This document shows positions 23,736-47,404 of a stretch of 64,000 nucleotides of DNA, piece by piece. The stretch spans positions 26,777 through 90,776 of the forward strand of contig CAIOAT010000038.1 of assembly GCA_903856085.1 (NCBI GenBank), written 5' to 3'. The notes below the pieces were generated by a model. That model had not been told where the DNA came from. It searched no databases and saw only the letters and a list, made by a program, of their open reading frames with translations. The position numbers and the translations under genes were made by a program. This DNA comes from Candidatus Omnitrophota bacterium (lineage in GTDB: Bacteria > Omnitrophota > Omnitrophia > Omnitrophales > Aquincolibacteriaceae). How positions within the stretch are numbered: the stretch's first letter is position 1; every line of letters begins with the position of its first letter.

Positions 23736-25982
23736 TTAAGCGAGTCGCTTCCATCCTTTTGAAAAATTATTGATCTTTATCTCAAAAAGCGGGATGTGTT
23801 TTTTTTGGCACGAATCCCTTAACCCTGTCTCCGTCCGTTCATCTTCTTCACTGTAGAATTTGGGATCCGCCCCAACAAGCCATATCCCATTTCCTTGAAC
23901 AATTCTCCCCTGTCTAAGAACAAAATCGATCAACGTATACGCTTCGGACATTGAAATGAATTTCATTCCTTTTTTGACTGAAAAACCTTTCGGCCTATTC
24001 ATAGGTTGAGCGAGTTGGCGCGGAACAAAAAATACCAAAACGCCTTTAACCCTTAAGGGATCCGTCTTGGGCTCCTGCATTTTAGAACCCAACTCTTTCA
24101 AAAACTGTTCGGGAAGCTCTTCTCCCGTCCGTTGAACTTCGTGTATATCTTCCCAAGCTTTCGCATATTCGTTTTTATGAAAATAACAAACTGCCCGGTT
24201 AAAATATGGCCCTTTTATTTGGGGATCTAGTTTCACAGCTTGATTAAAATCATCCAAGGCTTCGTCAAACCGCTCTTGAGACAGATAAAGCGTCCCGCGG
24301 TCAAAATAAGGCAAACCCCGGGATGGGGCTAATCGAATGGCCATTGAATAATCCAAAAGCGCTCCTTTGAGATCTTGCATACTAGCTTTAACGCTACCTC
24401 GTCCTGAGTAGGACTCCGAACGATTAGGGTTTAATGCAATCGCCTTGGAAAAATCGACGATGGCATCAGCATGATTTCCGAGTTCTTCGCGAATCGCACC
24501 TCTTTCACAATACGCCGCAGGAAGATCAGGCGCCAATTCGATAGCCTTCGTTAGGTCTGCGATTGCCCCGGGATAATCCTGCAGCTTTCTCCGAAACACG
24601 GCTCTTTGAAAATAAAACTCGGCAGCACGAAAAGCAAGTTCAGGCCGATCAGACGCCAGTTGAATGCTCTTCTCATAATCTTCCGCCGCTCCTTTGTTGT
24701 CACCGTACCATTCTTTTTCAGTCGCTCTAAAGGTATAGGCCGAGCTCCAGTTAGGATTTTTCTCAATAACCTCATTTAAAAACAATAAGGAGTTTTTCCA
24801 CACCTTACACCTCTGCACCGTTGCCAAAGAAAAAAAGGCCACATACCCCACCAAAAGGAAACAGAGCAAAACCTTGATTTTGCGAACTCCCGCCCTCGGA
24901 TTTTCCATGAATTTCACAAATAAATGGCTCGCGAGAAAAAATAATCCCAAATAAGCCATATAAGCGTATCTTTCCGCGACCACCACGACTCCGCCTATAG
25001 GCATTAAATGCAACACCAGCCCGATAGAGCATAAAAAAAACAAGAACCCAAAAACTATCTTTTTTCGATCCTCCTGCGATCCCTTAATTAAACGATCCAT
25101 TCCCCACAAGAAGCAAAGAACGAAGATCGGGGAAAAATAATAAATCAAAGGGAGCCCGGACATGTTTTTCACATCAGGGTAGATGTAACAAAGAGAAAAA
25201 TTATAAGGAACAAAAGAGCCGAGGACATAGTATGAAAAAGCATAAAATCCCATAAAGATGCGGCTCGTAAGGTCCAAGCCCGATTCCCCATAGACGATTT
25301 GGGACGTTGCAAATGAAACCATGCGGTGGATCCATAAAAAAATGGCCACAATGAAAAAAAATGGGGCTTTTTCAAAAAAAGCCTGAAAAGTCATTTTTCG
25401 ATTTTCCACATAATCGATTAAAAAAAGAACGAACGGAAAGACGAGGGCGGCAGTCTTGGACATTAATGAGAGTGAGAAAAAAAACAATGCGAGGATCAGA
25501 AAATGTATTTTGAATTTTTTCCTAACATAGAAGATATAACTTATCAAGCCGAGAAGATAAAAAAAAGCGTAAAGCATATCTTTTCGCTCAGTGATCCAAG
25601 CCACGGACTCGACGCGATAGGGATGGATCCCGAAAAACAAAGCGGTTAGTAATGCTACTTCGTATCTTTGAAACAATAAATAAATTAAAAAAAAGACGAG
25701 GAGAACGTTTAGCAGGTGAAATGCAATGTTTTCTACGTGATAAGGCCCGGGGTCAAGACCCCACAATTTATAATCGATCGCGAACGACGCAAGAGTGGCG
25801 GGAAGTTCTTCGTGAAAAAAAGAAAGGGCGATTTTTTGGATGCCCTCACTCGAAAAATCCCTAATATCGGGGTTATCCACCACATAGCTTTTATCATCCA
25901 CAAGTATAAAATCGCACTGAGGCAGATAAGCATAAATGCTTGCCGTTAATGTCAAAACCGCCAACAGAAGAATCACTTTCAT
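23736..25982 (-). CDS. TMTC-like GT-C fold membrane glycosyltransferase with C-terminal TPR repeats and an extra C-terminal domain of about 130 aa
   Basis: The N-terminal motif DFILVDDKSYVVDNPDI matches the FxFDDxxxIxxN motif. About 11 TM helices follow, then at least six TPRs (..AIELAPDLPAAYCERGAIREELGNHADAIVDFSKAIALNPN..). The start is reassigned to the ATG at 25982 (MKVILLLAV..). Confidence 0.7.
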   Translation of the reverse strand: MKVILLLAVLTLTASIYAYLPQCDFILVDDKSYVVDNPDIRDFSSEGIQKIALSFFHEELPATLASFAIDYKLWGLDPGPYHVENIAFHLLNVLLVFFLIYLLFQRYEVALLTALFFGIHPYRVESVAWITERKDMLYAFFYLLGLISYIFYVRKKFKIHFLILALFFFSLSLMSKTAALVFPFVLFLIDYVENRKMTFQAFFEKAPFFFIVAIFLWIHRMVSFATSQIVYGESGLDLTSRIFMGFYAFSYYVLGSFVPYNFSLCYIYPDVKNMSGLPLIYYFSPIFVLCFLWGMDRLIKGSQEDRKKIVFGFLFFLCSIGLVLHLMPIGGVVVVAERYAYMAYLGLFFLASHLFVKFMENPRAGVRKIKVLLCFLLVGYVAFFSLATVQRCKVWKNSLLFLNEVIEKNPNWSSAYTFRATEKEWYGDNKGAAEDYEKSIQLASDRPELAFRAAEFYFQRAVFRRKLQDYPGAIADLTKAIELAPDLPAAYCERGAIREELGNHADAIVDFSKAIALNPNRSESYSGRGSVKASMQDLKGALLDYSMAIRLAPSRGLPYFDRGTLYLSQERFDEALDDFNQAVKLDPQIKGPYFNRAVCYFHKNEYAKAWEDIHEVQRTGEELPEQFLKELGSKMQEPKTDPLRVKGVLVFFVPRQLAQPMNRPKGFSVKKGMKFISMSEAYTLIDFVLRQGRIVQGNGIWLVGADPKFYSEEDERTETGLRDSCQKKHIPLFEIKINNFSKGWKRLA

Positions 25983-25998
25983 GTGCCCGCTGCTGATA

Positions 25999-27516
25999 TT
26001 ATGCATCGAAATAACTTTCATATCCCAAAGCATAGCGAGTCCCCGCAAGCTTGTTAAAAATCCTTAAAAGAAACAAAAACAAAATTGCCTCGACTGGAAA
26101 TTGGAACCGCTTAAATTTAAATCTTAAATAGACTAGCGGATACAGCAATTTATTGATAATAAAAACAGCCCACCGCTGTTTTTCAGGGATAAGTTTATAA
26201 AAATCCGGATTGGCAAGCGGTAAGTAAAAATTGGCAAAGATCTCAAGCGCCCACCGGTAATCTTTTTTAAACCACGGCGCATGGAACTTCCTGAGCGTGT
26301 ACGTGGCCCAGTCGGCCAACCGCTCAGGAGCCTTCAGACCATGCTGCAAAGCCTTTGCATAAAGTTCGGTCCCCGGATAGGGCGTATAAAAAAAGATCCG
26401 GGCTCGCAGCGATGGGTCGGTCAACTTCGCCTGACGGATCATATCGAGCGTGAGACGAATGTCTTTATCGGGATTATCCGGAAACCCCACCATCGTTGAA
26501 AAAAGCGGCGTGATCCGGTGCCGTTTCAACAACGCAGCAAACCGAAGATTATCTTCAACCTTGGCTTCCTTGGCGATCAGATCCAGAACTTCCTGATCTC
26601 CGGACTCGGCCCCGATGTAAACCTGCCGGCACCCGGACCTATAAAGAAGCTCCAGATCTTCCTCCTTGAAGATCTTCAAAAAAAGACCGGCATGAGCGCT
26701 CGTATCCCACAAAAGATCCAATTTCTGGTCGATGAGTTCCTTTGCCAATTCCAGAGCAAAGGCTTTATTGACAAAAAAGTTGTCGTCGTCAAAGGTAACG
26801 CTGTCGATCCGCGCCTGTTTCTTAAAAAACCTCAGGTCCGTGATCACATCTGCCACTTTTTTCCGGTACCATTTCCGGCCATAGATCTTTGCAACGCAGC
26901 AGAACTTACAATTGTAAGGACAGCCATGACTGCAAAAATAACCGATACATCGATTGGAGTAAGCGCTTTTAAAAACATACGGGTTGAAATCTAGCAACCG
27001 ATAATCCACTTCCGGAAATTGGTTGATATCCTGGAAACTGGCGGGAGGATTGACGAGGATCTTGTCTTTCTTTTTAGAGCCCACGCCCGGAACACCGGAA
27101 GGGTCACGTGATGCCATCAATTCTTCCACAAGCTTTTGAAAAGGCATCTCCCCTTGGCCGCAAATCACGTAATCCACATAAGGCTCGATCAACACCTGTT
27201 CGGGCAAAAGTGTCGCGTGCCACCCGCCCCAAACAACGGGAACATCGATGAGCTTTTTGACCGCTTGGGAGAACCGGATACCGCCCAAGATCTGATGACC
27301 GGTCATCGCGCTTACACCGGCCAAAAGCAATCGGTCTTTGACCGATTCAAGGATCGGGAGATAATCCCGAGAAGTCTGTTCATTAATGAAAATAACTTCC
27401 AGACCTTTTCCGCGGATCATGCGCTCGAGATACAGCAGCGCATAAGGAATTCGTCCCCGCTGTTCACCCTGCCAAGGCGAAGGATAGAACAAAACGATCA
27501 CATTCTTCTCAGACAT
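25999..27516 (-). CDS. B12-binding domain-containing radical SAM enzyme (class B radical SAM)
   Basis: The N-terminal B12-binding Rossmann region (IVLFYPSPWQG..) precedes the radical SAM cluster CSHGCPYNCKFC. The start is reassigned to the ATG at 27516. Confidence 0.8.
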   Translation of the reverse strand: MSEKNVIVLFYPSPWQGEQRGRIPYALLYLERMIRGKGLEVIFINEQTSRDYLPILESVKDRLLLAGVSAMTGHQILGGIRFSQAVKKLIDVPVVWGGWHATLLPEQVLIEPYVDYVICGQGEMPFQKLVEELMASRDPSGVPGVGSKKKDKILVNPPASFQDINQFPEVDYRLLDFNPYVFKSAYSNRCIGYFCSHGCPYNCKFCCVAKIYGRKWYRKKVADVITDLRFFKKQARIDSVTFDDDNFFVNKAFALELAKELIDQKLDLLWDTSAHAGLFLKIFKEEDLELLYRSGCRQVYIGAESGDQEVLDLIAKEAKVEDNLRFAALLKRHRITPLFSTMVGFPDNPDKDIRLTLDMIRQAKLTDPSLRARIFFYTPYPGTELYAKALQHGLKAPERLADWATYTLRKFHAPWFKKDYRWALEIFANFYLPLANPDFYKLIPEKQRWAVFIINKLLYPLVYLRFKFKRFQFPVEAILFLFLLRIFNKLAGTRYALGYESYFDA

Positions 27517-27580
27517 GGGACTCCTTGAACTCCTTGATGAAAATATGTGACAGTCCCGTATTGGCCACGCGGAACTGCGG

Positions 27581-28495
27581 TCAACGCTTTCGAGCAACCA
27601 CAATCATTCTCCCCGCCCCCCACGGACAAAGCAAATAGCCCGCGAGCTGACAGATCATAAATTTCAACCCATGGGGTAGTGAGTTGAAACATTGCGCTAA
27701 TATTTTTTGAATGCCGGGAGCAGCATGCAAAGCATGATAGCGAATACTCCGTATCATATCCTCCGCGACCACCTCCCCCTGGATGGAAATCTCGCAAAAT
27801 CCAATGCCCTTTAAGATCCTGGACAATCCCCCCTTCGTAAAATGCACCCTGTGGCGAGGCAAATCAAACCCATGCCAAAACTTCCCGAATTTTTTCGCTT
27901 CCCAGGAGTCCATCCGGGGAAGCTTTAAAAATAGAATCCCTCCCCGTGCAAGCCCCTTCTGATAAATCTTCTCAAGACATTCGCGGAATCCATCGAGATG
28001 CTCCAACACATGCCTTGCAACAATGACATCCCACGGCCTTTCAAACCGCATCTCCGAAGCGAACACCTGATTGAGATGAATGTCATATTGGCTCGCCGCG
28101 AATCTTACTCCTTGCCCCCCCGGCTCAATCCCAGACACCTCAAACCCGCGATCTTTTGCCGCGCGAAGGAATTCCCCTCGTCCAGCGCCCACCTCAAAAA
28201 GAAACTTCTGCCCCGGATCTAAATACGCAGAGATCTTTTTCAGATCACTTCCGTATTTAATCTTTTGCAAAAACCCCCAAAATGTTTTTTTGGGAACATA
28301 CGCTTCAAAATCGTCGGGATAATAGATCGAAAATTCATCCGGGGGCAATGCCGGAAAACTGTACCCAATCTCACAGATGCTACAATAGCTGACACCAAAA
28401 GCCGGCGATCGACCGTCCAGCAAAAAAAAATCGGCTCCGTCGTTGAACAAAACCTTCGTCATGCCACCACAGATCCGGCATTCTTTTATGTCCAT
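27581..28495 (-). CDS. Class I SAM-dependent methyltransferase with an N-terminal zinc-ribbon
   Basis: CRICGG...CSICE is a zinc ribbon. Motif I is LFEVGAGRGEF. The acidic motif is DVIVARHVLEHL. Confidence 0.7.
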   Translation of the reverse strand: MDIKECRICGGMTKVLFNDGADFFLLDGRSPAFGVSYCSICEIGYSFPALPPDEFSIYYPDDFEAYVPKKTFWGFLQKIKYGSDLKKISAYLDPGQKFLFEVGAGRGEFLRAAKDRGFEVSGIEPGGQGVRFAASQYDIHLNQVFASEMRFERPWDVIVARHVLEHLDGFRECLEKIYQKGLARGGILFLKLPRMDSWEAKKFGKFWHGFDLPRHRVHFTKGGLSRILKGIGFCEISIQGEVVAEDMIRSIRYHALHAAPGIQKILAQCFNSLPHGLKFMICQLAGYLLCPWGAGRMIVVARKR

Positions 28496-28528
28496 AAAAA
28501 CTTCAACACCCTTCCCTTCAAATCATCT

Positions 28529-29695
28529 TTAAAGCTGTTGGTACACTTCGTGGATCCTTTGGCCGACCGCGTTCCAGGACAGATGCTCAACGGCTCTTTG
28601 ACGGGCTTTTTCTCCGAGATTCTTACAGGAAGCCGGATTTTGTATCGCCCATAGGATCTTCGCAGCCAGAGATTGAGCATCCTCCCTCTCAGCAAAAATA
28701 CCGCATTCCGCCAAGATCTCACGCGAGACAGAACGGTCAAAAGCAACCGTCGCCATTCCCATCGCCATATAGTTATAGATCTTTCCATCCCCTTCCGTGA
28801 CCGCGATCTTGGGGGCCACGGCAATATCCGATAAAGCCAGATACTCCGGTAGCAAGGCATAATCCACGCGCCCCAAAAACTTCACATGGTCTGCAATGCC
28901 GTACTGGTCACAGAGTGTCTTATAAGTCTCAATATTGGGATAACCGATCACGATGAACTGCGTCTGGAGAATCTCAAGGGCAACTGTCCGAAACGCTTGG
29001 AACATAAGATCCACCCCCTGATAAGACTCCAAAAGCCCCATGTAAAGAACCCTCGGCTTCGATCGATCGATGCCCACGCGCTCGGCTAATGCCAAAGGGA
29101 ATGGCCGGGGATAAAAAACATCCGTGTCCACTCCATCGCGCACATTCCTCTTCCGTTGCGGGGAGACCCCGAAAGATCCCAGTTCTTTCATCATGCTTTC
29201 CGATTGAGTGATCACAAAAAACCATCCGGCGATCCGCCGTTCCAAAAAAGAAAAGAATTGATGACGAAGTCCGCGTTTCCGGATGAAACGATGCTGCAAC
29301 AATTCCCCGGTCAAGGAACCTTGCATATCAAAAAGATATTTTGTTTTTCTGAAAAAAATGCGGCAGAAACGGGCAATGAGCGCTCCTTCATGGAGGTGGG
29401 CATGGATCACATCCGGCTTGAACTTAAGGATCGTTCGAATGACCGTAGCCGTTAAAAAAGGCAGAAGCAATATTTTGCTAAAACTCGGACCCGCCGAAAG
29501 CTTGTGGTACCAAGGCAGGCAAAAACACCTTACGATGGAAATGCCGGGGACGTCCCGACCGATCCCGTAGGTGCAAAGAACAACCTCGACATTTTCTTTT
29601 TGAAGCGCTTTGATCTCTTCATAGATCTGAACATGGCAGCCGCGGTCCGCGAAGAAAGGAGTGGGGGCGATCATGAGAACTTTCATTGCAGGCAA
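28529..29695 (-). CDS. Glycosyltransferase family 4 (GT-B, Glycos_transf_1)
   Basis: 388 aa. The N-terminal GT4 fold is MKVLMIAPTPFFADRGCHV. The C-terminal E-x7-E-like region is LGLLESYQGVDLM..EGDGKIYNYMAMGMATVAFD. Confidence 0.8.
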   Translation of the reverse strand: MPAMKVLMIAPTPFFADRGCHVQIYEEIKALQKENVEVVLCTYGIGRDVPGISIVRCFCLPWYHKLSAGPSFSKILLLPFLTATVIRTILKFKPDVIHAHLHEGALIARFCRIFFRKTKYLFDMQGSLTGELLQHRFIRKRGLRHQFFSFLERRIAGWFFVITQSESMMKELGSFGVSPQRKRNVRDGVDTDVFYPRPFPLALAERVGIDRSKPRVLYMGLLESYQGVDLMFQAFRTVALEILQTQFIVIGYPNIETYKTLCDQYGIADHVKFLGRVDYALLPEYLALSDIAVAPKIAVTEGDGKIYNYMAMGMATVAFDRSVSREILAECGIFAEREDAQSLAAKILWAIQNPASCKNLGEKARQRAVEHLSWNAVGQRIHEVYQQL

Positions 29696-29711
29696 ACAAG
29701 ATCCTTGCGGA

Positions 29712-30857
29712 TCACCTTAGAAATTCCAGGATTTTTTCAGAGACATAAGCCACTTCCTCATCCTTCAGCCTCAAGTGGAGCGGAAGGCTCACGGCTTCGC
29801 GCGAAGCCTTTTCAGCATTCGGACATGTTCCCAAAGCATACCGGTACATGGGATATTCCGAATTAATCCGGTAATGGACTCCCGGAAAGATATCGTGCTT
29901 ATTCAAAAAAAGGATCAATTCATTACGGGAATTTTCAGAAACGCGGATCTGGAATAAATGACGGGAGGACAGACAATCCGGAAGATATTCGGAAAAATGG
30001 ATCTGTTTGTGTTTGCCCAGCCGGCGTTCGTAAATTCCGCATAGCTCCCGCCGCCGTTTATTACCCTCTTCCAAATACTTTAGCTGCACCAGACAGATCG
30101 CGGCCATCACGGAATTGCCGTGGGCTTTCAGCCCGACATGAGGAACATCGTATTCCCATTTATAATTCCCCCTCTCCGAACCTGTGCCTGACCTCAAAAA
30201 AGTGTCCTTGTCGATCCCAAGCCACCCTTCCATGCGAACGCGAACATCCAACGCCCCGTCACAAAAACAGATCATCCCCGAATCCGCCGACGGAAGATTT
30301 TTCACGGCCTGAAAAGAAAAAACCGTGCAGTCGATACCATGCCCCACATGCTTTTCCTGATAATAAGTACCGGCCATATGCGCCGCATCAAGGATCAGCT
30401 TTAAATTTCTTTTTTTGCAGAGATCCCTCACATCCTTTAATCTGCCGGCATTCCCGGCCATCCCGACGAACATCACAGCTCTTGTTCTGGGCGTGATCCT
30501 TTGCTCAATCGAATGGGGATCAAGGCATAACGTCTCATCCACATCCGCAAAAACCGGACGCAACCGCTCATAGAGGATCGCATGGTTGGTGGACACAAAG
30601 GTCAGGGGCGTGGTGATCACTTCGTCTCCATCCTTCCAACCCAACTCGTCCTTAAAGATCTTTAAAGCCAGATGCAACCCGACTGTATTCGAGTTAAGAA
30701 AATAAGCAAAGGGCAGTCCTGTGTGCTTTTTCCAAGCGTCCTCAAATTGGTTTGTTTTAAAGCCAATGCCCGTCCACCCGACCTCAAGACATTCCCGGAT
30801 CTCCGCGAGACATTCTTCCACATGGAATTGAGGCGCGAACAGTTGTATCTTGCTCAT
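29712..30857 (-). CDS. DegT/DnrJ/EryC1/StrS-family PLP-dependent sugar aminotransferase
   Basis: 381-aa fold-type I aminotransferase. The PLP lysine context is FSFQAVKNLPSADSG. The gene overlaps the upstream GT2 gene by 4 nt. Confidence 0.8.
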   Translation of the reverse strand: MSKIQLFAPQFHVEECLAEIRECLEVGWTGIGFKTNQFEDAWKKHTGLPFAYFLNSNTVGLHLALKIFKDELGWKDGDEVITTPLTFVSTNHAILYERLRPVFADVDETLCLDPHSIEQRITPRTRAVMFVGMAGNAGRLKDVRDLCKKRNLKLILDAAHMAGTYYQEKHVGHGIDCTVFSFQAVKNLPSADSGMICFCDGALDVRVRMEGWLGIDKDTFLRSGTGSERGNYKWEYDVPHVGLKAHGNSVMAAICLVQLKYLEEGNKRRRELCGIYERRLGKHKQIHFSEYLPDCLSSRHLFQIRVSENSRNELILFLNKHDIFPGVHYRINSEYPMYRYALGTCPNAEKASREAVSLPLHLRLKDEEVAYVSEKILEFLR

Positions 30858-31810
30858 TGGCCGCTGTCCGTTCTCTCAAAAACTTCCTGGACATTGTAGG
30901 GTCTATCTTTGGTATTGGCGTAATAACTCTTGGAAAGCATATCCGCGATCAATCCTAGGACAAAAAGCAGCACGCCGGTCAGAACGAGAAAGGCAGACAG
31001 GATCGGCCATGCGGTGTGGCCTATTTTCCCCAATAAAAGATAAAGATAGAGAGCGTAAAGGAAAGTCACAAATCCGAGCGCTATGGATACCAATCCCATG
31101 CCTCCCAGAAGATGCAGCGGGCGCACCGCATATTTGTTCCAGAACCATACCGAGATCATATCGACAAACCCCTTCAGGGCTCGCCGCCAATCATACTTGG
31201 TTTTCCCGTATTTTCTCGGCCGGTGATTCACGACGATCTCTCCGACCCGGAAGCCTTTGATCTTTAAAATCGCCGGGATAAAGCGGTGCATTTCTCCATA
31301 GAGATCGATCTGTCGGAAGCATTCCTTTTTATAGACCTTAAGGGAGCAACCGCTATCATGAATGCCGTCCTGAATGAGAAACCCTTTGAGAAAATTAGCG
31401 GTCCTTGAGACGAACCGTTTAAGAAAGGGATCCATTCTTTTCTTCCGCCATCCGGAGACAACATCAAGGCCATTCTCTTGGAGATACTGGATCAATTTGG
31501 GGATATCATGCGGATCATTTTGTCCATCTCCGTCCATGGTAATCACGAGAGGATGTCGGGCTTGCTTGATCCCGGCATCGAGCGCAGCGGTCTGTCCAAA
31601 ATTACGCCGGAAACGGATCACCTTGACAGGGGCCAATGATTGGGCGACTTCGAAAGTCTTATCCGTCGAGCCATCATCCGCTAAAATAATTTCGTAGATA
31701 TAGCGGTTCTCCTCACAAACAGATTTTATCTCGCGAAAAATCTCCGGGATATTCTCTGCTTCGTTAAAAACCGGGATGACGATCGAGACAGAATCTATAG
31801 CATCTTTCAA
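30854..31810 (-). CDS. GT2 polyprenol-phosphate sugar synthase (GtrB/ArnC-like) with two C-terminal TM helices
   Basis: VSIVIPVFNEAENI..ILADDGSTDKT..MDGDGQNDPHDIP is the DXD region. The C-terminal helices are LHLLGGMGLVSIALGFVTFLYALYLYLLL and ILSAFLVLTGVLLFVLGLIADML. Confidence 0.75.
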   Translation of the reverse strand: MKDAIDSVSIVIPVFNEAENIPEIFREIKSVCEENRYIYEIILADDGSTDKTFEVAQSLAPVKVIRFRRNFGQTAALDAGIKQARHPLVITMDGDGQNDPHDIPKLIQYLQENGLDVVSGWRKKRMDPFLKRFVSRTANFLKGFLIQDGIHDSGCSLKVYKKECFRQIDLYGEMHRFIPAILKIKGFRVGEIVVNHRPRKYGKTKYDWRRALKGFVDMISVWFWNKYAVRPLHLLGGMGLVSIALGFVTFLYALYLYLLLGKIGHTAWPILSAFLVLTGVLLFVLGLIADMLSKSYYANTKDRPYNVQEVFERTDSGQ

Positions 31811-31834
31811 AGTCAGACCTCCTTTGAGATCCTG

Positions 31835-33906: not shown

Positions 33907-34104
33907 AATTATATGAATTTACGATTAATGCGCAAGGATTGTAAATCGGTACGGTGTGCGGCGTAGGGCATCCCACACCTTTATCGTTATCCCCAGCACA
34001 CCTTGCGCCATACTTAGATTTCGGAACCAATCTCGGGACAAAGAACTTGTGCGTCATTCTCTTATCGAACATAATACGTCACGACCAGTGAACATTGAGG
34101 CATT

Positions 34105-35907: not shown

Positions 35908-35936
35908 AACATCCCAACAGTGAACATTGAGGCATT

Positions 35937-39503: not shown

Positions 39504-39536
39504 CAATTCATAAATAGCGATGAGGAGGTTACCCGT

Positions 39537-40919
39537 ATGCATTTTGTCTTTGTTCAACCGCCCATAGGTAAGAGAGTAGTCAGTATAATACCCGCTTTAA
39601 GCATCCCTTACCTTGCTGCTATTGTGGAAGGAAAGCAAATTCAGGTATCGGTGGTTGCATCTGACGCTGAAGGTTTAAGCGTAGAAGAAACAGCGGAGAG
39701 AGTGATTGAGTTACGTCCGGATGTTGTCGGATTTTCAATTGGAACACTCGCTGCTCTTAATTCATACGAAATCGCCGGGCTGGTGAAAAAGAAAATTAGC
39801 GATGTGATAACTATTGCCGGGGGACATCATGCTACGATATTCCCGGAGGAGGTATTAACCAGCGGGATTGATTTTGTCGCAATTGGAGAGGGGGAAAAAA
39901 CGATTGGTGAATTTTCTGACTACCTCTTGAAAAATAAAAAGCTAGAAGAGGTTCGCGGAATTGCATATCGTCAGGGAGAGAGGATTAAATACAATGACAC
40001 CCAAACAGTCATTAAAAACTTGGACGATTTACCGCTGCCAGCATGGCATTTAATGCCAATCGACAAGTACAAAAGTGTCTTTCAAAAGACGCTGCGAAAC
40101 TTACCTATTGTGACATCACGTGGGTGTCACGGACAATGCATTTTTTGTTACAAAGGACTATTTGGAGATACGTTCCGAATGAGGTCGCCCAAAAACATTG
40201 TTAGTGAAATAAGATACTTGAAGGATAATTTCGGCATAAGTTCGTTCGATTTCATTGATGATCATTTCGCGACTATTCCTAAACGAGCAATAGAAATATG
40301 CGCATTGATAAAAAAGGAGGGGATCAATTTAGCCTGGGGACTCCCATCAGGGATACGCGTTGATGTGGTTACTGAGGAATTGTTAAACGCATTGAAAGAA
40401 GCGGGGTGCTATCGTATTGGATTTGGCGTTGAATCAGGAAATGACCGAGTGTTAAAAAACATCAAGAAAAATACTACGAAAGATCAAATTCGCAAAGCCG
40501 TACAATTGGCGCGAAGTATGAATTTTACAGTATATTGTTTTTTTATTATTGGCAATCTCGGCGAAACAGAGCGGTCGATTAATGACACCATTGAATTTGC
40601 TAGGGAACTTGACCCCGATATTGCACAATTCTCAGTAGCGGTGCCATATCCTGGGACTGAGATGTTTCGGATGTTAAAACAACAGGACAGAATTATCAGT
40701 TTTGATTGGAACGATTACGATTATTTTTCATCCGGTCGTCAAATTTTTAAACATGAGCATCTTGATTATCATGTCATCCAAAAAAAATACGCTGAAGCAT
40801 ACAGAAGTTTCTATTTAAGGCCAACGTACATCATAAAACAATTAAAGGCTTTAAAAAATTTAAACGAGATGAAGAAATTAATACAATCGTTTTTCCGATT
40901 ATTCGGTCTATTAAAATAA
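39537..40919 (+). CDS. B12-binding domain-containing radical SAM enzyme, AT-rich composition
   Basis: MHFVFVQPPIGK.., cluster motif CHGQCIFCYKGLFG. Composition and codon usage are visibly AT-richer than the flanking genes. Confidence 0.8.
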   Translation: MHFVFVQPPIGKRVVSIIPALSIPYLAAIVEGKQIQVSVVASDAEGLSVEETAERVIELRPDVVGFSIGTLAALNSYEIAGLVKKKISDVITIAGGHHATIFPEEVLTSGIDFVAIGEGEKTIGEFSDYLLKNKKLEEVRGIAYRQGERIKYNDTQTVIKNLDDLPLPAWHLMPIDKYKSVFQKTLRNLPIVTSRGCHGQCIFCYKGLFGDTFRMRSPKNIVSEIRYLKDNFGISSFDFIDDHFATIPKRAIEICALIKKEGINLAWGLPSGIRVDVVTEELLNALKEAGCYRIGFGVESGNDRVLKNIKKNTTKDQIRKAVQLARSMNFTVYCFFIIGNLGETERSINDTIEFARELDPDIAQFSVAVPYPGTEMFRMLKQQDRIISFDWNDYDYFSSGRQIFKHEHLDYHVIQKKYAEAYRSFYLRPTYIIKQLKALKNLNEMKKLIQSFFRLFGLLK

Positions 40920-41105
40920 TGCGTTGCAATGTTGTACTATTCTACGAGACGTCGATACATAGACATTTTTAAAGAAGTTTGTATAGCGCAAGAAGTCGGT
41001 AAAACGTCTTCTTTCGGCCCATAAAAGCATCGTTGCTGGACTTGAGCGTAAAGTTTTAGCGTACACAATGGATTAAATTATAATTAGCTCTATGAATCAC
41101 ATAAC

Positions 41106-42122
41106 ATGAAAACTTCGATTATCATCGTAAACTGGAATGGTAAAGAGTTTCTCCCTGAGTGCTTGGACAGTCTGCACACTCAGACGTATGACGACTTTGA
41201 AACCATCGTGGTCGACAATGGTTCGCGTGACGGCTCCGTGGAGCTGCTCCGTGGATCCTACCCTTGGGTCCGTCTGGTTCAACTGGATTCAAATACCGGG
41301 TTCGCAAGCGGCAACAATGCGGGGCTCTCTGCCGCTCGAGGCAGTAGGTACATTGTGACCCTCAACAACGACACCCGTGTGGATCGTCACTGGCTGGCCG
41401 AACTGACTGCAGCCGCCGAGAGTTCCCCTCAGATGGGAATGGTCGCTAGCCGCATCTGCGACTGGGACAACCCGGACCAGATCGACTCCCTTGGAATTGC
41501 CATTTGCCGCGACGGTATGTCCCGTGGCAGCAAACGGCATGCTTGTTTTTCTGCGCTTTCAATTGCCAAAAACGAGGCTATCCTCCTGCCCAGTGCCTGC
41601 GCCGCTTTGTACCGAAGAGAAATGATTAATGAAATTGGTTTTTTCGACGATGATTTCTTTGCTTATTGCGAGGATATTGATCTGGGACTGAGGGGCCGAC
41701 TGGCGGGCTGGCAGGCGGTGCTTGCACGCGACGCCATCGTGTATCATCGCTACTCACGCAGCGGCGGAGTATTTTCTCCCATGAAGCTGTACCTGGTAGA
41801 ACGAAATCATTTCTGGGTTGCGCTGAAATGTTTTCCGATTAATATGCTACTCACTCTGCCGTTCTGGACCATGATTCGCTATCTGGTGCAGGCACGACTG
41901 GTGTTGGAGGCAAGAGGCGCAGGAGCCCAGTTTCGCAACGCATCATCGGGCGATTTGATCAAGGCTGTCCTGCGGGGAATCATGGATGTAGCACGCGGAC
42001 TGCCGTCCCTCCTCCGCAAACGCCATGCAACACTAACGAAACAACGCCTTTCACCCAAAGAGATGCGTCAGCTTTTAAAAAAATATAAACTTACGTTCAG
42101 GGAGCTCCTCGATGCCGGTTGA
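41106..42122 (+). CDS. Glycosyltransferase family 2 (GT-A)
   Basis: SIIIVNWNGKEFLPECLDSL..TIVVDNGSRDGS..DDDFFAYCEDIDL is the DXD region. Confidence 0.8.
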   Translation: MKTSIIIVNWNGKEFLPECLDSLHTQTYDDFETIVVDNGSRDGSVELLRGSYPWVRLVQLDSNTGFASGNNAGLSAARGSRYIVTLNNDTRVDRHWLAELTAAAESSPQMGMVASRICDWDNPDQIDSLGIAICRDGMSRGSKRHACFSALSIAKNEAILLPSACAALYRREMINEIGFFDDDFFAYCEDIDLGLRGRLAGWQAVLARDAIVYHRYSRSGGVFSPMKLYLVERNHFWVALKCFPINMLLTLPFWTMIRYLVQARLVLEARGAGAQFRNASSGDLIKAVLRGIMDVARGLPSLLRKRHATLTKQRLSPKEMRQLLKKYKLTFRELLDAG

Positions 42123-42744
42123 CACGGGTTTGAACAAGGAAGGAATGATCTTTCAGCGGGATCAATACGCCAAGGGGGGCCTTGGAGTACGCTACTGGGA
42201 CTATCGCGATCGCAGCGCGCTTCAGCATGTCATCGGCAACGATATCCTGGATGCCGGTTGCGGCGAAGGGATTACCCTGGAAAAACTGGTGAAACTCTTC
42301 CCCAAGGCCCATGTGGTCGGCATTGATACTGAACCGGAAAATCTTGAGATCTGCCGCAAACATGGTTTACCCGCACAAGAGGGATCACTCTATGCTCTCC
42401 CTTTTGCCGATGCATCGTTTGATACGGTTCTCTTCTCCGAGGTAATCGAACACCTGGATACGCCGGAGAAGGCTCTGTCTGAAATTTTCCGGGTGCTACG
42501 CCCCGGCGGAAGGGTCATCATCATTTTCCCAAATGACCGCACTTTCTTGCTGGCACGTCTGGCAATAGGCATGATTCGCGAGGCATTCTATAATCCCGGG
42601 CATGTCCGGCAGTGGACGCCCCGTCAGATCCGTAAATCACTAAACGCCATTGGGTTTGTGCCGATTGCCGGAAGCAGCATTCCTTTTTTATTTTGGTCCA
42701 TAAGCTTACATCATATTGCGGTGGCCGAAAAAACCCATGATTAA
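42112..42744 (+). CDS. Class I SAM-dependent methyltransferase (Methyltransf_11-like)
   Basis: Motif I is ILDAGCGEGITL. Motif II is FDTVLFSEVIEHL. Motif III is LRPGGRVII. Confidence 0.75.
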   Translation: MPVDTGLNKEGMIFQRDQYAKGGLGVRYWDYRDRSALQHVIGNDILDAGCGEGITLEKLVKLFPKAHVVGIDTEPENLEICRKHGLPAQEGSLYALPFADASFDTVLFSEVIEHLDTPEKALSEIFRVLRPGGRVIIIFPNDRTFLLARLAIGMIREAFYNPGHVRQWTPRQIRKSLNAIGFVPIAGSSIPFLFWSISLHHIAVAEKTHD

Positions 42745-44110
42745 GTTTCTCTGGATCAATGCTATAGATTCCGCTTCGGAGGTTGAAACCCGATATCCTC
42801 ATTTGGGGATTGGCTACCTGGTTGCGTCACTCAAGAGATCCTTCGGAGATGATGCCTTTCTTTTCCAGGTTGTCAGTTCTGATATCGAAACGGCTCTAGA
42901 CAAATTCCAGCCTGACATCGTAGGGATTTCTGCTGTAAGTCAGAACTACGGACGTGCCATCCTCTATGCGGCCGAGGCACGACGACGGGAAATCCCAGTC
43001 CTTGTCGGCGGAGTTCACATCTCGTTTCTGCCCGAAACGCTTTCTCCCGATATGACAGTAGGCTGCATGGGTGAGAGCGAAGAAACTATCATCGAACTAA
43101 TGCGAATTTATCGTGAAACGCAATGTTTTGAACCAAAAAAACTGGCCTCCGTTGCGGGTATTATCTACCATGCTGAGGATGGCAGCCTCGTTACCACAAA
43201 ATCTCGCCCCCCAAAAATGGATCTCGATTCTCTCGCTATCCCGGACCGGAGTCTTTTCAAAGAATCATCGCATACGTATCTTTTTACTTCCCGGGGATGT
43301 CCGTACCGCTGCTCTTTTTGCGCATCTTCCCGCTTTTGGGATACGGTAAGATTTTTTTCCGCCGAACGGGTTATCCATGAGATCGAGGAACTCATGAAAA
43401 ACTCGGGCGTTACTTTTATCAGCTTTTTTGATGATCTTTTTGTTGCAGACAAAAAGCGTTTTCACAGGATCGTCGAGCTACTTGAACAGAAAAAGATTAT
43501 TGGAAAGGTCAAATTCTCCTGTTCTCTTCGGACCAATACCATCACAGAAGATGTCGTGGCCGGTTTAAAGCGCATGGGCATTGTGTCCGTCGGCATGGGG
43601 CTTGAATCGGGAAATCAAAGGGTGCTAACCTGGTTGAAGGGTGCCGGAATTACAGTAGAACATAACCGGCGCGCAGTGACATTGCTCCGGGCAAACGGGA
43701 TCATGGCAAACGCATCGTTTGTCATCGGCACTCCGGATGAAACGAAAAAGGAAATCCTGGATACTCTGCATTTTATAAAATCAGTTGGCTTGGGTCTTTT
43801 TGATGTCTATGTCCTGACGCCCTTTCCAGGAACCCCAGTATGGGAATCAGCAAAAAGCCGGGGGCTTGTCTCCGAGGGACCGGAAATGGACTGGAGCCGC
43901 TTGAATGTCAATTTTGAGGTTTCTCCTGACAAAGCCATTATCCTTTCGGAAGTCCTATCCCGCGATGAGATCGTGGAACTTTACGAAAAGTTTCGCCGGT
44001 ACCGTTTTCTTCACAATGTCGCCACGATCTGGCGGCATCCGATGCTCACGGACCTGCCCCGCTATGCCTTTAAATTGTTACGCGAAAAAATCCTGAGGGC
44101 CATACGATGA
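42737..44110 (+). CDS. B12-binding domain-containing radical SAM enzyme
   Basis: The start is reassigned to the ATG at 42737 (MIKFLWINAID..), which overlaps the methyltransferase stop by 8 nt. The cluster motif is CPYRCSFCASSRFWD. Confidence 0.8.
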   Translation: MIKFLWINAIDSASEVETRYPHLGIGYLVASLKRSFGDDAFLFQVVSSDIETALDKFQPDIVGISAVSQNYGRAILYAAEARRREIPVLVGGVHISFLPETLSPDMTVGCMGESEETIIELMRIYRETQCFEPKKLASVAGIIYHAEDGSLVTTKSRPPKMDLDSLAIPDRSLFKESSHTYLFTSRGCPYRCSFCASSRFWDTVRFFSAERVIHEIEELMKNSGVTFISFFDDLFVADKKRFHRIVELLEQKKIIGKVKFSCSLRTNTITEDVVAGLKRMGIVSVGMGLESGNQRVLTWLKGAGITVEHNRRAVTLLRANGIMANASFVIGTPDETKKEILDTLHFIKSVGLGLFDVYVLTPFPGTPVWESAKSRGLVSEGPEMDWSRLNVNFEVSPDKAIILSEVLSRDEIVELYEKFRRYRFLHNVATIWRHPMLTDLPRYAFKLLREKILRAIR

Positions 44111-44829
44111 ACAGCACAAACAACACGCGCTCCCTTGTACTGGTTCCGGCCTATAATGAGGCCGCGCGAATAGGCAGTGTTGTTGAAGGCATCAAGCATA
44201 TCGTCCCTGGAATGCCTGTGCTGGTGATCAATGATGGTTCCAAAGATGCCACTTCAAGCGTCGCCCGCACGTCCGGTGCGATCGTCATAACCCACCCCTT
44301 TAATATGGGATACGGTGTTGCCATCCAGACTGGATACAAGTACGCTCTTGCCAATAACTATGACTACCTTATCCAGCTAGATGCCGACGGCCAGCACGAT
44401 CCGTCCTGCATCCCGGCTTTGTTGGCTCCGGTGGTCAAAGGAGAGGTCGACGTTGCTATCGGCTCGCGTTTTCTTGGGAACAGCTATCGACCGCCTTTTG
44501 CGCGCAGGATGGGTATGGCACTCTTCCGCAGGATCGTATTTCTGGTAACGGGCAAATTCGTCACGGATACGACCTCGGGGTATCAAGCATTTAATCGCAA
44601 CGTGATACGTTTTTTTTCTACGGATATCTTTCCGGTCGATTATCCGGACGCCGACATGTTGATCACGCTTCACCGGGCAGGCTTTCGCATGACCGAAGTA
44701 CCGGTTCGCATGTTTGAAAACAGCGAGGGAAAGTCAATGCACGGCGGGTTTAAGCCGATCTATTATATGTTCAAGATGTTGCTGTCCATTAGTGTGACAT
44801 TCATGAGAGATAAGAGAAAAAACCAGTAA
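44107..44829 (+). CDS. GT2 polyprenol-monophosphate sugar synthase-like (DPM1/Ppm1-like, soluble)
   Basis: LVLVPAYNEAARI..VINDGSKDAT..QLDADGQHDP is the DXD motif. It has no TM helices. It overlaps the upstream gene by 4 nt. Confidence 0.75.
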   Translation: MNSTNNTRSLVLVPAYNEAARIGSVVEGIKHIVPGMPVLVINDGSKDATSSVARTSGAIVITHPFNMGYGVAIQTGYKYALANNYDYLIQLDADGQHDPSCIPALLAPVVKGEVDVAIGSRFLGNSYRPPFARRMGMALFRRIVFLVTGKFVTDTTSGYQAFNRNVIRFFSTDIFPVDYPDADMLITLHRAGFRMTEVPVRMFENSEGKSMHGGFKPIYYMFKMLLSISVTFMRDKRKNQ

Positions 44830-44880
44830 GACCCCCTGCGTTTGCGCCGCGGTGCAACCCTAGGGAGAAATGAGGAAACC

Positions 44881-45270
44881 ATGCTTGCAAGCCAAAGAAT
44901 CTTCGCTCTATTCATTTGCTGTTTTGTCTTTGCCTACACCCTGAATCTAGTGAGAAGGCGTAAACTTCGTGAAGAGTATTCCGTTCTCTGGCTTGCGACC
45001 AGCCTGTTGATGTTTATTCTTGTGATACGCTATGAATGGCTCGTAGCCCTCACAAGTTTGATCGGTGCGGGTTTACCGACCACCACTTTGTTCATCTGCT
45101 CGATCATCTTTCTTATGCTTGTAGCGGTTCAAATTTCCATCAAGATATCACACCTGACGGACCAGGTTAAAAATCTGGCCCAAGAAAATGCCCTACTTCG
45201 AACTAAAATGGATGCAACGTCAGCGGGCATGGGACACGGAGAAGTGAAAAACAAGCCTGTCTCTTTTTGA
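44881..45270 (+). CDS. DUF2304-like small membrane protein (usual partner of DPM1-like GT2)
   Basis: Two TM helices (IFALFICCFVFAYTLNLV, LVALTSLIGAGLPTTTLFICSIIFLMLVAV) precede a C-terminal amphipathic helix. The start at 44881 has a GAGGAAACC Shine-Dalgarno. Confidence 0.5.
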   Translation: MLASQRIFALFICCFVFAYTLNLVRRRKLREEYSVLWLATSLLMFILVIRYEWLVALTSLIGAGLPTTTLFICSIIFLMLVAVQISIKISHLTDQVKNLAQENALLRTKMDATSAGMGHGEVKNKPVSF

Positions 45271-45304
45271 TAAAAATAACATGCCCCGCGAAGGTTGAAG
45301 CCCC

Positions 45305-47404
45305 ATGAATCCAAGACCGCTATCCACGCGAACTTTTTTTCTCTTGATCCTGTTCTTCGGGATCGCGGCCTATTCCAATACCCTGCACGCCCCCTTCTAT
45401 TTTGATGACTATCCAAGCATACTTAACAATTCAAGCATTCTGAATCCTTGGGACTGGATCGGCCTACTGGACAAAGCCCCCACACGCTTTCTTGTTTTTT
45501 TTAGTTTTGCGATCAACTACAAAATAGGCGGGGCTTCTCCTTTTGGATACCATGTCGTCAATTTGATCATCCATCTTCTAAACGGCATTTTAGTCTTCGG
45601 AATAGCCCTGCTCTTATCGACACCCCATGAGCTCCAGGGGAAAACCCTCCCCCCTGCACAAAAAAATCTTATTGCCTTCGCCTCGGCGATTATTTTTGTC
45701 TGTCATCCCGTCCAAACCCAAGCTGTCACCTATATCGTCCAGCGAATGACCTCGATGGCTTCTTTTTTCTATCTAGCGACAATCTTACTCTATCTTCATT
45801 TTCGGATCAGCAAAGTGCGGGCATTTTACCTTTTAGGATTATTCACAGCTCTTCTCAGCATGCTCTCTAAAGAAATCGCGTTTACTCTCCCCGTAACCTT
45901 ATTGCTCTGCGAAATCTTGTTTTTCAATCAAAACGCAAAATCGATTCCGTCCCTTGTAAAACGCCTCCTCCCCTTCGTCCTCGTTTCTCTTTTGATTCCG
46001 GGAATGTATTTTTTGAATCATGAGCAACTCGTTCGACATGGCGGACAAATGGGCCTCGTGCCCACGGGCGCAAAGAATCTTTCCCGCAGCATGTATTTCA
46101 TCACCCAACTGGATGTTATCCGGACCTACCTTAGGCTTCTTGTTTTTCCGATCCGTCAAACCTTTGACTATGACTTCCCGCTTTCGACCGGATTCTTCAG
46201 CCCCGCAACCTTCGGTTCTTTTATGCTTCTTGTGGCCATTCTTGCTACCGGTTATCGCCTGATCCGGAAGCAACCGCTCGCAGTTTTCGGGATCTTATTT
46301 TTTTTCCTAACTTTGAGCATTGAGTCGACCATCATCCCCCTCCCCGACCTAATCTTTGAACACCGGCTTTATCTCCCCATGGCAGGTTTTGCTTTTTTAA
46401 CAGCTTCATTCCTCGCCAAATTCTTAAAATCGCCCCGTCTTTTTACAATCATCTCGATCGCCCTCGCACTCATCTTAGGAACGCTCACCTATCAGCGCAA
46501 TACCGTATGGACAAACGAGATCGTTTTTTGGAAAGACCAGATCAAAAAAGCTCCCTTTAAAGGCCGCGGTTATTTTCAGCTCGGCATGGCCTACAACAAA
46601 ATTCATCAATACCCGTTAGCGGCTGATAGTTTTTTAGAGGCGCTGCGCTGGACGCCGGAGGACAAGAAAAATGATATTGAGTTTAATAATGTGGGCGCGG
46701 CCTATGATCATTCAGGGCAAACCACAAAAGCGGAACATTGGTTTCGCAAGGGGCTAGAATCACATCCGAAGTCTGGAACCCTTCACACGAATTTGGCCGT
46801 CTTGGAAGCAAGAAAAGGGAATTCTGAGGATGCTATCTTATTGTTAAAAAAATCGATCGCGTTAGAGCCCGGAACTGCGATTGCGTATTATGAACTTGCC
46901 CATATTTATTCACTGAGAAATGAATACTCGAAAGCCATCCCGTTGCTCGAAAAAGCTATCGATTTAGACCCCTTCTTGAGCCCCGCGCATGAGCTTCTCG
47001 AAAGAATGTATGAACAGCAAGCAAACCAAGCAAAGAACCTTTCAACTCGTCAAGCCTCAGAAGGCAACTCCCCGAAAGACACTATTTCCCGAGATCGAAT
47101 TACCGGTTCAAAAAAAGAAAGTGCCACGCCGAGTGCCATCGTTGCGCTAGAAGAAGCCCTCCGGATCAGTCCTGCGGATCCGTCATTGCATGTTCAGCTT
47201 GGAGAACTTTATCGGAAATCGGGACAGGAAGACTCCGCGGTTAAATCGTTTCAAAAAGCCATCAAAGTCGCACCGCTGCGCAAAGAAGGCTATGAAGCCT
47301 TGGCCCTTTTTTATAATGGGCAAGGGGACAAACAAAAAGCCCTGGCTGTCCTGATGGAATACCTGAAGTTAAAAAAGAAACACGGCTCGTTATCGCGAAA
47401 TTGA
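45305..47404 (+). CDS. TMTC-like GT-C membrane glycosyltransferase with an extended C-terminal TPR array (paralog C)
   Basis: PFYFDDYPSILNNSSILNP. About 11 TM helices are followed by at least 8 TPRs. The conserved tail is ..GDKQKALAVLMEYLKLKKKHGSLSRN. Confidence 0.75.
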   Translation: MNPRPLSTRTFFLLILFFGIAAYSNTLHAPFYFDDYPSILNNSSILNPWDWIGLLDKAPTRFLVFFSFAINYKIGGASPFGYHVVNLIIHLLNGILVFGIALLLSTPHELQGKTLPPAQKNLIAFASAIIFVCHPVQTQAVTYIVQRMTSMASFFYLATILLYLHFRISKVRAFYLLGLFTALLSMLSKEIAFTLPVTLLLCEILFFNQNAKSIPSLVKRLLPFVLVSLLIPGMYFLNHEQLVRHGGQMGLVPTGAKNLSRSMYFITQLDVIRTYLRLLVFPIRQTFDYDFPLSTGFFSPATFGSFMLLVAILATGYRLIRKQPLAVFGILFFFLTLSIESTIIPLPDLIFEHRLYLPMAGFAFLTASFLAKFLKSPRLFTIISIALALILGTLTYQRNTVWTNEIVFWKDQIKKAPFKGRGYFQLGMAYNKIHQYPLAADSFLEALRWTPEDKKNDIEFNNVGAAYDHSGQTTKAEHWFRKGLESHPKSGTLHTNLAVLEARKGNSEDAILLLKKSIALEPGTAIAYYELAHIYSLRNEYSKAIPLLEKAIDLDPFLSPAHELLERMYEQQANQAKNLSTRQASEGNSPKDTISRDRITGSKKESATPSAIVALEEALRISPADPSLHVQLGELYRKSGQEDSAVKSFQKAIKVAPLRKEGYEALALFYNGQGDKQKALAVLMEYLKLKKKHGSLSRN

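Follow-up and report, generated by a model that had tools for sequence, protein, structure and literature searches.

A locus of four TMTC-like membrane proteins with tetratricopeptide repeats and accessory sugar-donor genes in an Omnitrophota genome

The DNA analyzed here, referred to as the window, is a 64,000-nucleotide stretch of contig CAIOAT010000038.1 (positions 26,777 to 90,776 of the forward strand) from the Candidatus Omnitrophota bacterium assembly GCA_903856085.1, and all coordinates given below are positions within it. The window carries four paralogous genes, T1 to T4, each encoding a polytopic membrane domain followed by an array of tetratricopeptide repeats (TPRs), an arrangement that resembles the TMTC protein O-mannosyltransferases of animals. 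A preliminary description of this DNA had interpreted the region as an island for TMTC-type protein O-glycosylation with two dedicated synthases of lipid-linked sugars, and the open reading frame (ORF) listing and translations confirm the four genes at the positions and strands it gave. They lie in two divergent, tightly packed gene strings together with the putative donor genes listed here.

23736-25982, minus: T1, divergent paralog with predicted GT-C domain and TPRs, 748 amino acids (aa); ORF listing, translation and TPR Pfam matches
34105-35907, plus: T2, predicted GT-C and TPR paralog, 600 aa, which leads the plus-strand operon
35937-37727, plus: T3, predicted GT-C and TPR paralog, 596 aa, in tandem with T2
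45305-47404, plus: T4, predicted GT-C and TPR paralog, 699 aa, directly 3′ of the GT2 and DUF2304 pair
30854-31810, minus: ArnC/GtrB-type polyprenyl-phosphate glycosyltransferase of family GT2, 318 residues; Pfam GT2, NCBIfam and PDB matches
29712-30857, minus: DegT-family sugar aminotransferase, ArnB/PseC-like; Pfam E 5.6e-81
44107-44829, plus: soluble-type polyprenyl-phosphate sugar synthase of family GT2, DPMS/PpgS/GacI-like, 240 residues
44881-45270 (ORF from 44842), plus: DUF2304 small membrane protein, GacJ/Rv3632-type; Pfam PF10066 E 3.5e-25

Membrane domain and topology of the four paralogs

The N-terminal ~400 residues of each paralog are hydrophobic and contain an xFxxDD...N motif (DFILVDDKSYVVDN in T1, SFQFDDVPTILEN in T2 and T3, and PFYFDDYPSILNN in T4), and this domain is followed by many strong C-terminal matches to Pfam TPR profiles. 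The FxFDD-type motifs described previously are therefore present in all four translations. Judged by sequence, the proteins are homologous to one another, with pairwise identities of 74% for T2 and T3, ~40% for T2 or T3 with T4, and 25% (E 3e-35) for T1 with T4. The T1 ORF extends to a TTG codon at 26048, and the ATG at 25982 is the plausible start. T1 also has an extra C-terminal tail of ~110 aa past the TPRs (23736-24080), for which there is no Pfam match.

The membrane domains of T1 to T4 yielded no significant Pfam match. An AlphaFold model of T4 built from an alignment of 60 homologs (pLDDT 89.6) consists of 11 membrane helices and then TPR repeats, and a fold search with this full-length model returned TPR proteins only (OGT, SPY and APC subunits). 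Because of this outcome, the N-terminal 405 residues were modeled separately (pLDDT 84.4, pTM 0.90). With this second model, the top 25 Foldseek matches were all GT-C enzymes. Fold matches include PMT (protein O-mannosyltransferase), STT3/AglB and ArnT, and the best structural match is a protein O-mannosyltransferase. The N-terminal membrane domain is thus predicted to adopt a GT-C fold, and the model, the Foldseek matches and the Pfam TPR matches bear out the earlier view of a TMTC-type architecture, in which an 11-helix GT-C domain precedes a TPR array. As a separate observation, the fold searches also gave a weak match to PDB entry 8ebf, the 'C-terminal (TPR) domain of LIC11990, cytoplasmic membrane protein' from Leptospira interrogans, and LIC11990 may be of the same membrane-domain-plus-TPR design.

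These results bear on a different identity for the family, as O-antigen ligases or Wzy-type enzymes, or as PglL-type oligosaccharyltransferases that use oligosaccharides linked to undecaprenyl diphosphate. Such enzymes are also polytopic, and some have TPR repeats. However, the membrane domain has no match to Wzy_C or related Pfam families at E<=10, its fold matches are GT-C enzymes, and the GT2 enzymes encoded alongside resemble those that make monophosphate-linked single sugars. An O-antigen ligase or Wzy-type identity was rejected on the first two of these grounds, and we regard the explanation as a whole as scarcely credible.

The topology of the family was assessed from the distribution of positive charge. 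Among 60 family members, the density of lysine plus arginine is 0.215 in predicted cytoplasmic segments versus 0.079 in predicted periplasmic loops. Note that for T4 alone the positive-inside count is uninformative (6 versus 7 in short loops), and the pattern is clear only family-wide. Many members also have long basic N-terminal tails. From the charge pattern and these tails, the TPR array is predicted to be periplasmic, as are the DD loop and the remaining conserved loops, and the N terminus is predicted to be cytoplasmic, in agreement with the periplasmic FxFDD loop proposed earlier and with the topology published for TMTC (PMC7801869). Five of these 60 homologs begin with 58-65 additional cytoplasmic residues ahead of the first membrane helix, and the three such extensions that were compared carry a similar lysine-rich motif (e.g. 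...HLNLRERVITDFLDQELKRK...).

Conserved residues of the family, in T4 numbering, are D34, D35, H83, N86, H90, H134, P135, R147, K189, E352, R354 and Y356. D34 is invariant and D35 is at least 90% conserved, and the DD pair is found in all four paralogs. This conservation is relevant to a further alternative, namely that the proteins are mainly noncatalytic periplasmic TPR scaffolds or chaperones on a degenerate GT-C-like membrane anchor. TPRs are generic interaction modules, and the NCBI name of these proteins is just 'tetratricopeptide repeat protein'. Nevertheless, this alternative appears very improbable to us because the DD pair and a further ~15 loop residues show full or almost full conservation in the 60 diverse members, because the GT-C domain is under purifying selection with a ratio of nonsynonymous to synonymous divergence (dN/dS) of ~0.2, and because donor synthases recur beside the gene.

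To compare the family with TMTC, the sequence data used were exon-sized animal fragments of 56-90 aa, found by a search seeded with the published TMTC1 motif, and similarity was tested over only ~70 residues that form the segment from loop 1 through helices 2 and 3 to loop 2. A TMTC fragment from Culex quinquefasciatus (P0245, 90 aa, carrying SHKSYRPLCVL) matched T4 residues 61-142 with a BLASTP E of 8e-12 and T1 with an E of 6e-8 and one gap; against the family profile, hhalign gave it a probability of 98.5% (E 2.7e-15). A second animal fragment, P0247 (61 aa), carries the JGI name 'protein O-mannosyl-transferase'. When the PDB was searched with the membrane domain by phmmer and by profile, nothing was returned at E<=10, and the family profile likewise found no solved GT-C enzyme at that threshold, though ArnT, PMT, PglB and STT3 are present there. 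The fragment match and the lack of any match at the sequence level in the PDB together place the family closer to TMTC than to ArnT, PMT, PglB or STT3, and over the ~70 residues compared its sequence similarity to animal TMTC is significant and exceeds that to other GT-C families.

Membership in two other GT-C families is not supported. For PMT (GT39), the PMT_2 profile reached 22.7 bits on T3 only, below its cut-off of 26.1, and no MIR domain was matched in Pfam on T1 to T4; 3 of 15 family members match PMT_2 below threshold, and some relatives of T1 carry PF13231 PMT_2. The PMT_2 match that might have been expected from the preliminary description is thus limited to this sub-threshold score. 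For ArnT (GT83), there was no detection at the sequence level.

Further likeness to TMTC was sought by eye, by comparison with motifs M2-M5 and M7 (SHKSYRP, RxD, KE(T/Q)xxT, DW and ERxxY) in Table 4 of PMC7801869, and the picture is mixed. The family stretch R..L...SF..NY..G...GYH..N...H aligns with TMTC without gaps. Loop 3 contains K189-E-x-x-x-T194 (KEIxFT in T2-T4), comparable to KE(T/Q)xxT of TMTC, and the loop between helices 9 and 10 contains E352-H-R-L-Y in T2-T4 and ERYAY in T1, comparable to ERxxY. An RKD that fits RxD (M3) occurs in T1 only, and T2-T4 are without its aspartate. The conserved family residues fall in the same loops as the TMTC motifs DD, KE(T/Q)xxT and ERxxY.

Donor synthases and accessory gene blocks

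The minus-strand GT2 enzyme (30854-31810) matched ArnC structures in the PDB over its full length (E 2e-40), as well as GtrB (sll0501; 7e-29) and an archaeal dolichyl-phosphate mannose synthase (DPMS; 4e-20). Its NCBIfam scores are 156.7 bits for ArnC and 138.7 bits for PgfS, both under cut-off, and it has two C-terminal hydrophobic (membrane) helices. The DegT protein encoded next to it scores 203.9 bits with ArnB and 196 bits with PseC, also under the cut-offs. For the plus-strand GT2 enzyme (44107-44829), the top PDB match is the archaeal dolichyl-phosphate mannose synthase 5mlz (E 1.5e-11), and the NCBIfam score for PpgS is 107.7 bits, again under cut-off. These sequence matches support the assignment of both enzymes as polyprenyl-phosphate sugar synthases that face the cytoplasm, and the PDB, NCBIfam and Pfam results uphold the earlier description of one as ArnC/GtrB-like with two C-terminal helices and of the other as DPMS-like with a DUF2304 partner.

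Because all of these scores lie under equivalog cut-offs, they do not assign the sugar. GacJ and Rv3632, both DUF2304 proteins, bind or stimulate a partner GT2 enzyme. The partner of GacJ is GacI, an undecaprenyl-phosphate N-acetylglucosamine (GlcNAc) synthase, and that of Rv3632 is PpgS, a polyprenyl-phosphate N-acetylgalactosamine (GalNAc) synthase; the resulting lipid-linked sugar is used by a GT-C enzyme outside the membrane (bioRxiv 10.1101/180810). By analogy with these GlcNAc and GalNAc donors, and with the 4-amino-sugar route that the ArnB-like and ArnC-like enzymes of the other block resemble, the sugars are probably an N-acetylhexosamine (HexNAc) and a 4-amino sugar rather than the mannose implied by the original comparison with TMTC.

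The same donor genes raise a serious rival explanation, in which T1-T4 belong to three-component systems that modify a glycan or lipid in the periplasm by the same undecaprenyl-phosphate-sugar chemistry (GtrA/B/Gtr*, GacI/J/K/L, PpgS/Rv3632/Rv3779 or ArnB/C/T type). The acceptor would then be a polysaccharide, lipopolysaccharide/lipid A or another envelope glycoconjugate, and the TPR domain would dock the enzyme on an export or assembly machine instead of selecting proteins. It is a serious rival because all characterized donor systems of the GacI/J-like or ArnB/C-like kind modify glycans or lipids; specifically, the known GT2 and DUF2304 pairs supply GT-C enzymes whose acceptor is polyrhamnose or arabinogalactan (bioRxiv 10.1101/180810). 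In the window, the minus-strand block combines ArnB-like and ArnC-like enzymes with T1, and GT4 and GT2 enzymes and an EpsG-like membrane protein are encoded within the same blocks. However, the top structural match of the membrane domain is a protein O-mannosyltransferase, the significant sequence similarity is with TMTC whereas sequence searches do not detect ArnT or the other solved GT-C enzymes, and no characterized glycan-modifying GT-C enzyme bears a TPR array. Arrays of genes with conserved, paralog-specific TPR domains (see below) also suit many acceptors better than one polymer. On this evidence we rate the explanation as rather unlikely.

The remaining genes of the region, and the pilus-related locus, are as follows.

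22740-23714, minus: short-chain dehydrogenase/reductase (SDR) nucleotide-sugar epimerase/dehydratase, the outermost gene of the accessory block on the minus strand (22740-31810)
25999-27603, minus: B12-binding radical S-adenosylmethionine (SAM) enzyme
27581-28495, minus: SAM-dependent methyltransferase
28529-29695, minus: GT4 glycosyltransferase
31835-33906, minus: leuC/leuD, mid-region
37923-39503 and 39537-40919, plus: pair of B12-radical SAM genes within the T3-T4 accessory insert 37923-44110
41106-42122, plus: further GT2 enzyme, T3-T4 accessory insert
42112-42744, plus: methyltransferase, T3-T4 accessory insert
42716-44110, plus: B12-radical SAM enzyme, T3-T4 accessory insert
47390-48994, minus: polytopic membrane protein, DUF6798, with a weak EpsG-like match
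10775-21005: type IV pilus/type II secretion system-like locus

The minus-strand string thus reads leuC, leuD, ArnC-like GT2, DegT, GT4, methyltransferase, B12-binding radical SAM, T1 and SDR, and the plus-strand string reads T2, T3, two B12-radical SAM genes, GT2, methyltransferase, B12-radical SAM, GT2, DUF2304 and T4. The DegT aminotransferase, SDR epimerase, GT4, further GT2 and two methyltransferases reported in the preliminary description were all found; it had omitted leuC/leuD and the four B12-binding radical SAM genes, all of which are inside the region. These four (class B) radical SAM genes are in the accessory blocks and adjoin glycosyltransferases and SAM methyltransferases. Their top NCBIfam matches, HpnJ and BchE, are far under the cut-offs, and C-methylation of a sugar or lipid might be their role.

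The family to which T1-T4 belong is widespread. Among representatives of 50%-identity clusters, a search with just the membrane domain gives 55,875 matches at E<=1e-3 and 6,772 at E<=1e-30, and species-representative genomes contain more than 591 loci. Carriers include Omnitrophota, Nitrospirota, Desulfobacterota (including the cultured Geomonas paludis), Planctomycetes, Bacteroidales, Kiritimatiellae and one candidate phyla radiation genome, and the nearest named relatives are Omnitrophota metagenome-assembled genomes (MAGs). Tandem arrays are common, with nine copies within ~24 kb on one Omnitrophota contig (JAJDCA010000018.1; loci L035 and L037) and four copies in another genome; L054 and L031 are also among the loci with large arrays. 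The presence of four paralogs, which had been taken as telling, is therefore correct as a count and unremarkable beside arrays of up to nine.

Comparison with a related genome (loci L083/L084), which shares 83-91% identity with the window in its housekeeping proteins, separates a conserved backbone from the remaining genes. The backbone in L083/L084 comprises PilM, a repeat protein, leuD, leuC, four directly tandem GT-C/TPR genes (R1-R4), dinB, proS, rseP, dxr, cdsA and uppS. These loci lack T1 and all of the genes for sugar enzymes, radical SAM enzymes and methyltransferases, and the 37923-44110 insert is absent between the orthologous R2 and R3. Because the relative has the same backbone without them, blocks 22740-31810 and 37923-45270 are either accessory inserts or have been lost from the relative. 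Their G+C content of 0.43-0.49, versus 0.50-0.53 in the flanks, fits the accessory-insert view. No flanking direct repeats were found at the block joints and no tRNA gene adjoins them (tRNAs are at 61.8-62.5 kb). Synteny accordingly holds for the leuCD, GT-C/TPR and dinB backbone and fails for the sugar genes.

Co-localization was further assessed over 80 related loci. A GT2 gene resembling polyprenyl-phosphate-sugar synthases lies within 6 kb at 12 of the 80 loci (strong matches) to 20 of the 80 (all matches), or ~15-25%. The exact triad of GT2, DUF2304 and GT-C/TPR genes occurs also in one Nitrospirae MAG and two Bacteroidales MAGs. The synthases are therefore not the fixed part of the system that they were first taken to be, and the accessory sugar-synthesis genes probably set which sugar this lineage uses.

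Two neighboring proteins stand at the edges of this arrangement. The DUF6798 protein, for which no relative was found among solved structures, sits at the slot of the fourth GT-C/TPR paralog of L083/L084, and it may or may not be part of the GT-C/TPR system. Between the pilus genes and the minus-strand block, the protein at 21030-22562 (minus) carries ~60-aa tandem repeats (...AVKSWVALEEKIVHDYKEQKT...) together with a coiled coil and one membrane helix; the number of repeats varies, the protein having 510 aa in the window versus 621 aa in the related genome (L083 1533-3398). At the end of the pilin-like cluster are an ORF of the '23S rRNA intervening sequence protein' family and a response-regulator receiver protein (9677-10018 and 10019-10762, minus).

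Mosaic evolution of T2 and T3

The two most similar paralogs differ sharply between their domains. T2 and T3 DNA is 88-97% identical over codons 1-400, and identity then drops sharply to 42-70% from nucleotide 35304, which is the exact junction of the GT-C and TPR domains. At the protein level, the two share 88% identity over the GT-C domain versus 47% over the TPR domain, and the corresponding synonymous divergence (dS) is 0.33 versus 1.6. The TPR domains pair as orthologs with those of the related genome (63% for T2-R1, 70% for T3-R2 and 61% for T4-R3), such that the T3 TPR domain is 70% identical to that of R2 versus 47% to that of T2. In contrast, for their GT-C domains, T2 and T3 show the same identity (~72%) to each of R1, R2 and R4.

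Because the TPR domains are orthologous across genomes, the T2/T3 duplication predates the split of the two genomes. These sequence comparisons indicate that the catalytic domain has been homogenized within each genome by gene conversion while the TPR domains have stayed distinct. In other arrays, the difference between GT-C and TPR domains runs in the same direction. A homogenized catalytic domain joined to old, orthologous TPR domains fits a specificity encoded by the TPRs, and it lends indirect support to the earlier proposal that the TPR region is the selectivity module. For TMEM260, the TPR domain by itself binds the acceptor peptide.

Conservation at the DNA level was also observed at the ends of T2, T3 and T4. 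Their 5′ ends are 78-91% identical (34080-34208, 35912-36040 and 45280-45408, including ~25 nucleotides upstream of the start), and their last 175 nucleotides are 65-74% identical (35733-35907, 37553-37727 and 47230-47404), which contrasts with the ~40% overall protein identity of T4. These ends could be shared regulatory or recombination segments.

Proposed function and comparison with known systems

We lean, with limited confidence, toward a function for T1-T4 as periplasm-facing TMTC-type GT-C glycosyltransferases that move a single sugar to a protein acceptor recruited by the TPRs. In this scheme, the ArnC-like GT2 enzyme would work with the ArnB-like aminotransferase and the SDR enzyme to load one sugar onto undecaprenyl phosphate, and the DPMS/PpgS-like GT2 enzyme, activated by its DUF2304 partner, would load another. 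A flippase would move the lipid-linked sugar across the membrane, whereupon the GT-C domain would transfer the single sugar to the acceptor recruited by the TPR domain. By analogy with TMTC and TMEM260, the acceptor would most likely be Ser/Thr of specific secreted or envelope proteins, and each paralog would serve its own acceptor set.

Pilins were considered as linked substrates, since the preliminary description had pointed to Ser/Thr-rich pilins encoded immediately upstream. The pilin-like proteins have only 11-21% Ser plus Thr. Pilus genes are near 5 of the 80 related loci, about chance level, and no pilin homologs were found at those loci. The link to pilins, proposed from their adjacency, is therefore not supported.

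Several points weigh against protein glycosylation by T1-T4. All characterized bacterial systems with a GT2 and DUF2304 pair or with ArnB/ArnC-like enzymes modify a glycan or lipid, not protein; the Arn pathway, for example, modifies lipid. TPR domains also scaffold polysaccharide export machines. No flippase of the GtrA, Wzx/GacK or ArnE/F type was found among ORFs of at least 100 aa in the 22.7-49 kb region. Coupling of donor genes to the GT-C enzymes is deduced from recurrent but minority co-localization, given that the closest related genome is without the donor genes. Within the family itself, T1 has KT where T2-T4 have KE, and the DW motif (M5) of TMTC is not conserved. Pfam DUF1736 (PF08409), which in TMTC lies in the loop between helices 7 and 8 and would have been expected from the preliminary description, has no match in the N-terminal domains of T1 to T4 (E<=10) or in 15 members of the family (E<=1), and it is missing from the precomputed Pfam lists of 240 homologs.

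The family has been noticed before. A 2021 paper recorded essentially full-length homologues, with both transferase and TPR regions, in many poorly characterized prokaryotes, including a deltaproteobacterial homologue with an E of 3e-47 to human TMTC3 (PMC7801869), and JGI names many family members 'protein O-mannosyl-transferase'. No experimental study of a bacterial member was found in the literature searched, coverage of which is incomplete. The earlier statement that such glycosylation is essentially uncharacterized in bacteria therefore stands as to experiment and not as to recognition of the family. The transferase activity of TMTC itself was described as not demonstrated as of 2021, and no TMTC structure surfaced in the profile and fold searches of the PDB made here. 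The locus is thus correctly recognized as a member of an already noted, experimentally uncharacterized family and is not a new kind of system; what the present analysis adds is that the donor modules are accessory and that the tandem paralogs evolved as mosaics.

More broadly, and tentatively, the family could represent a widespread bacterial protein O-glycosylation in which TPRs encode the envelope or secreted targets, catalytic domains are homogenized and swappable gene blocks choose the sugar, with animal TMTC O-mannosylation as a descendant or relative. TMTC enzymes matter in human development. The locus offers a tractable entry because candidate donor synthases share an operon with a transferase and because T2 and T3 amount to a domain swap made by nature, in which one catalytic module is combined with two different TPR modules. 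A family member is also available in a cultured relative, Geomonas paludis Red736 (L075 5956-7740, contig NZ_BLXY01000005.1). The identity of the acceptor would show whether Omnitrophota, Nitrospirota, Desulfobacterota, Planctomycetota and Bacteroidota have a general, eukaryote-like protein O-glycosylation.

Among known systems, the closest likeness is to TMTC1-4 (CAZy GT105), the endoplasmic reticulum protein O-mannosyltransferases that act on cadherins. Shared features are the 11-helix GT-C domain, whose first extracytoplasmic loop contains DD, whose loop 3 contains a motif of the KExxT type and whose helices 9 and 10 are joined by a loop with a motif of the E(H)R.Y type, a C-terminal TPR array on the noncytoplasmic side and several paralogs per genome. 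The proteins described here differ in the missing DUF1736 match, in the nonconserved DW and in the EHRLY motif and absent RxD aspartate of T2-T4. Undecaprenyl phosphate has to take the place of dolichyl phosphate as their donor lipid, and the clustered synthases suggest HexNAc or an amino sugar rather than mannose. Human TMEM260, also an O-mannosyltransferase, shares the layout in which a lumenal TPR domain comes after the GT-C domain; it represents a separate GT-C family and is set beside T1-T4 for this layout. Relative to fungal and actinobacterial PMT (GT39), TPRs replace the MIR domain, and there is no sequence match to PMT structures.

On the donor side, GacI/GacJ/GacL of Streptococcus and PpgS/Rv3632/Rv3779 of Mycobacterium share a HexNAc-type GT2 synthase and a DUF2304 protein beside a GT-C transferase, whereas their GT-C enzymes lack TPRs and act on polysaccharides of the cell wall. 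The ArnB/ArnC/ArnT pathway shares an ArnC-like GT2 enzyme, an ArnB-like aminotransferase and a GT-C enzyme, which here are encoded in one codirectional string. However, the scores obtained here are far under the NCBIfam equivalog cut-offs, there is no ArnA formyltransferase, ArnD or ArnE/F, and T1 is not detectably ArnT-like in sequence and, unlike ArnT, carries TPRs.

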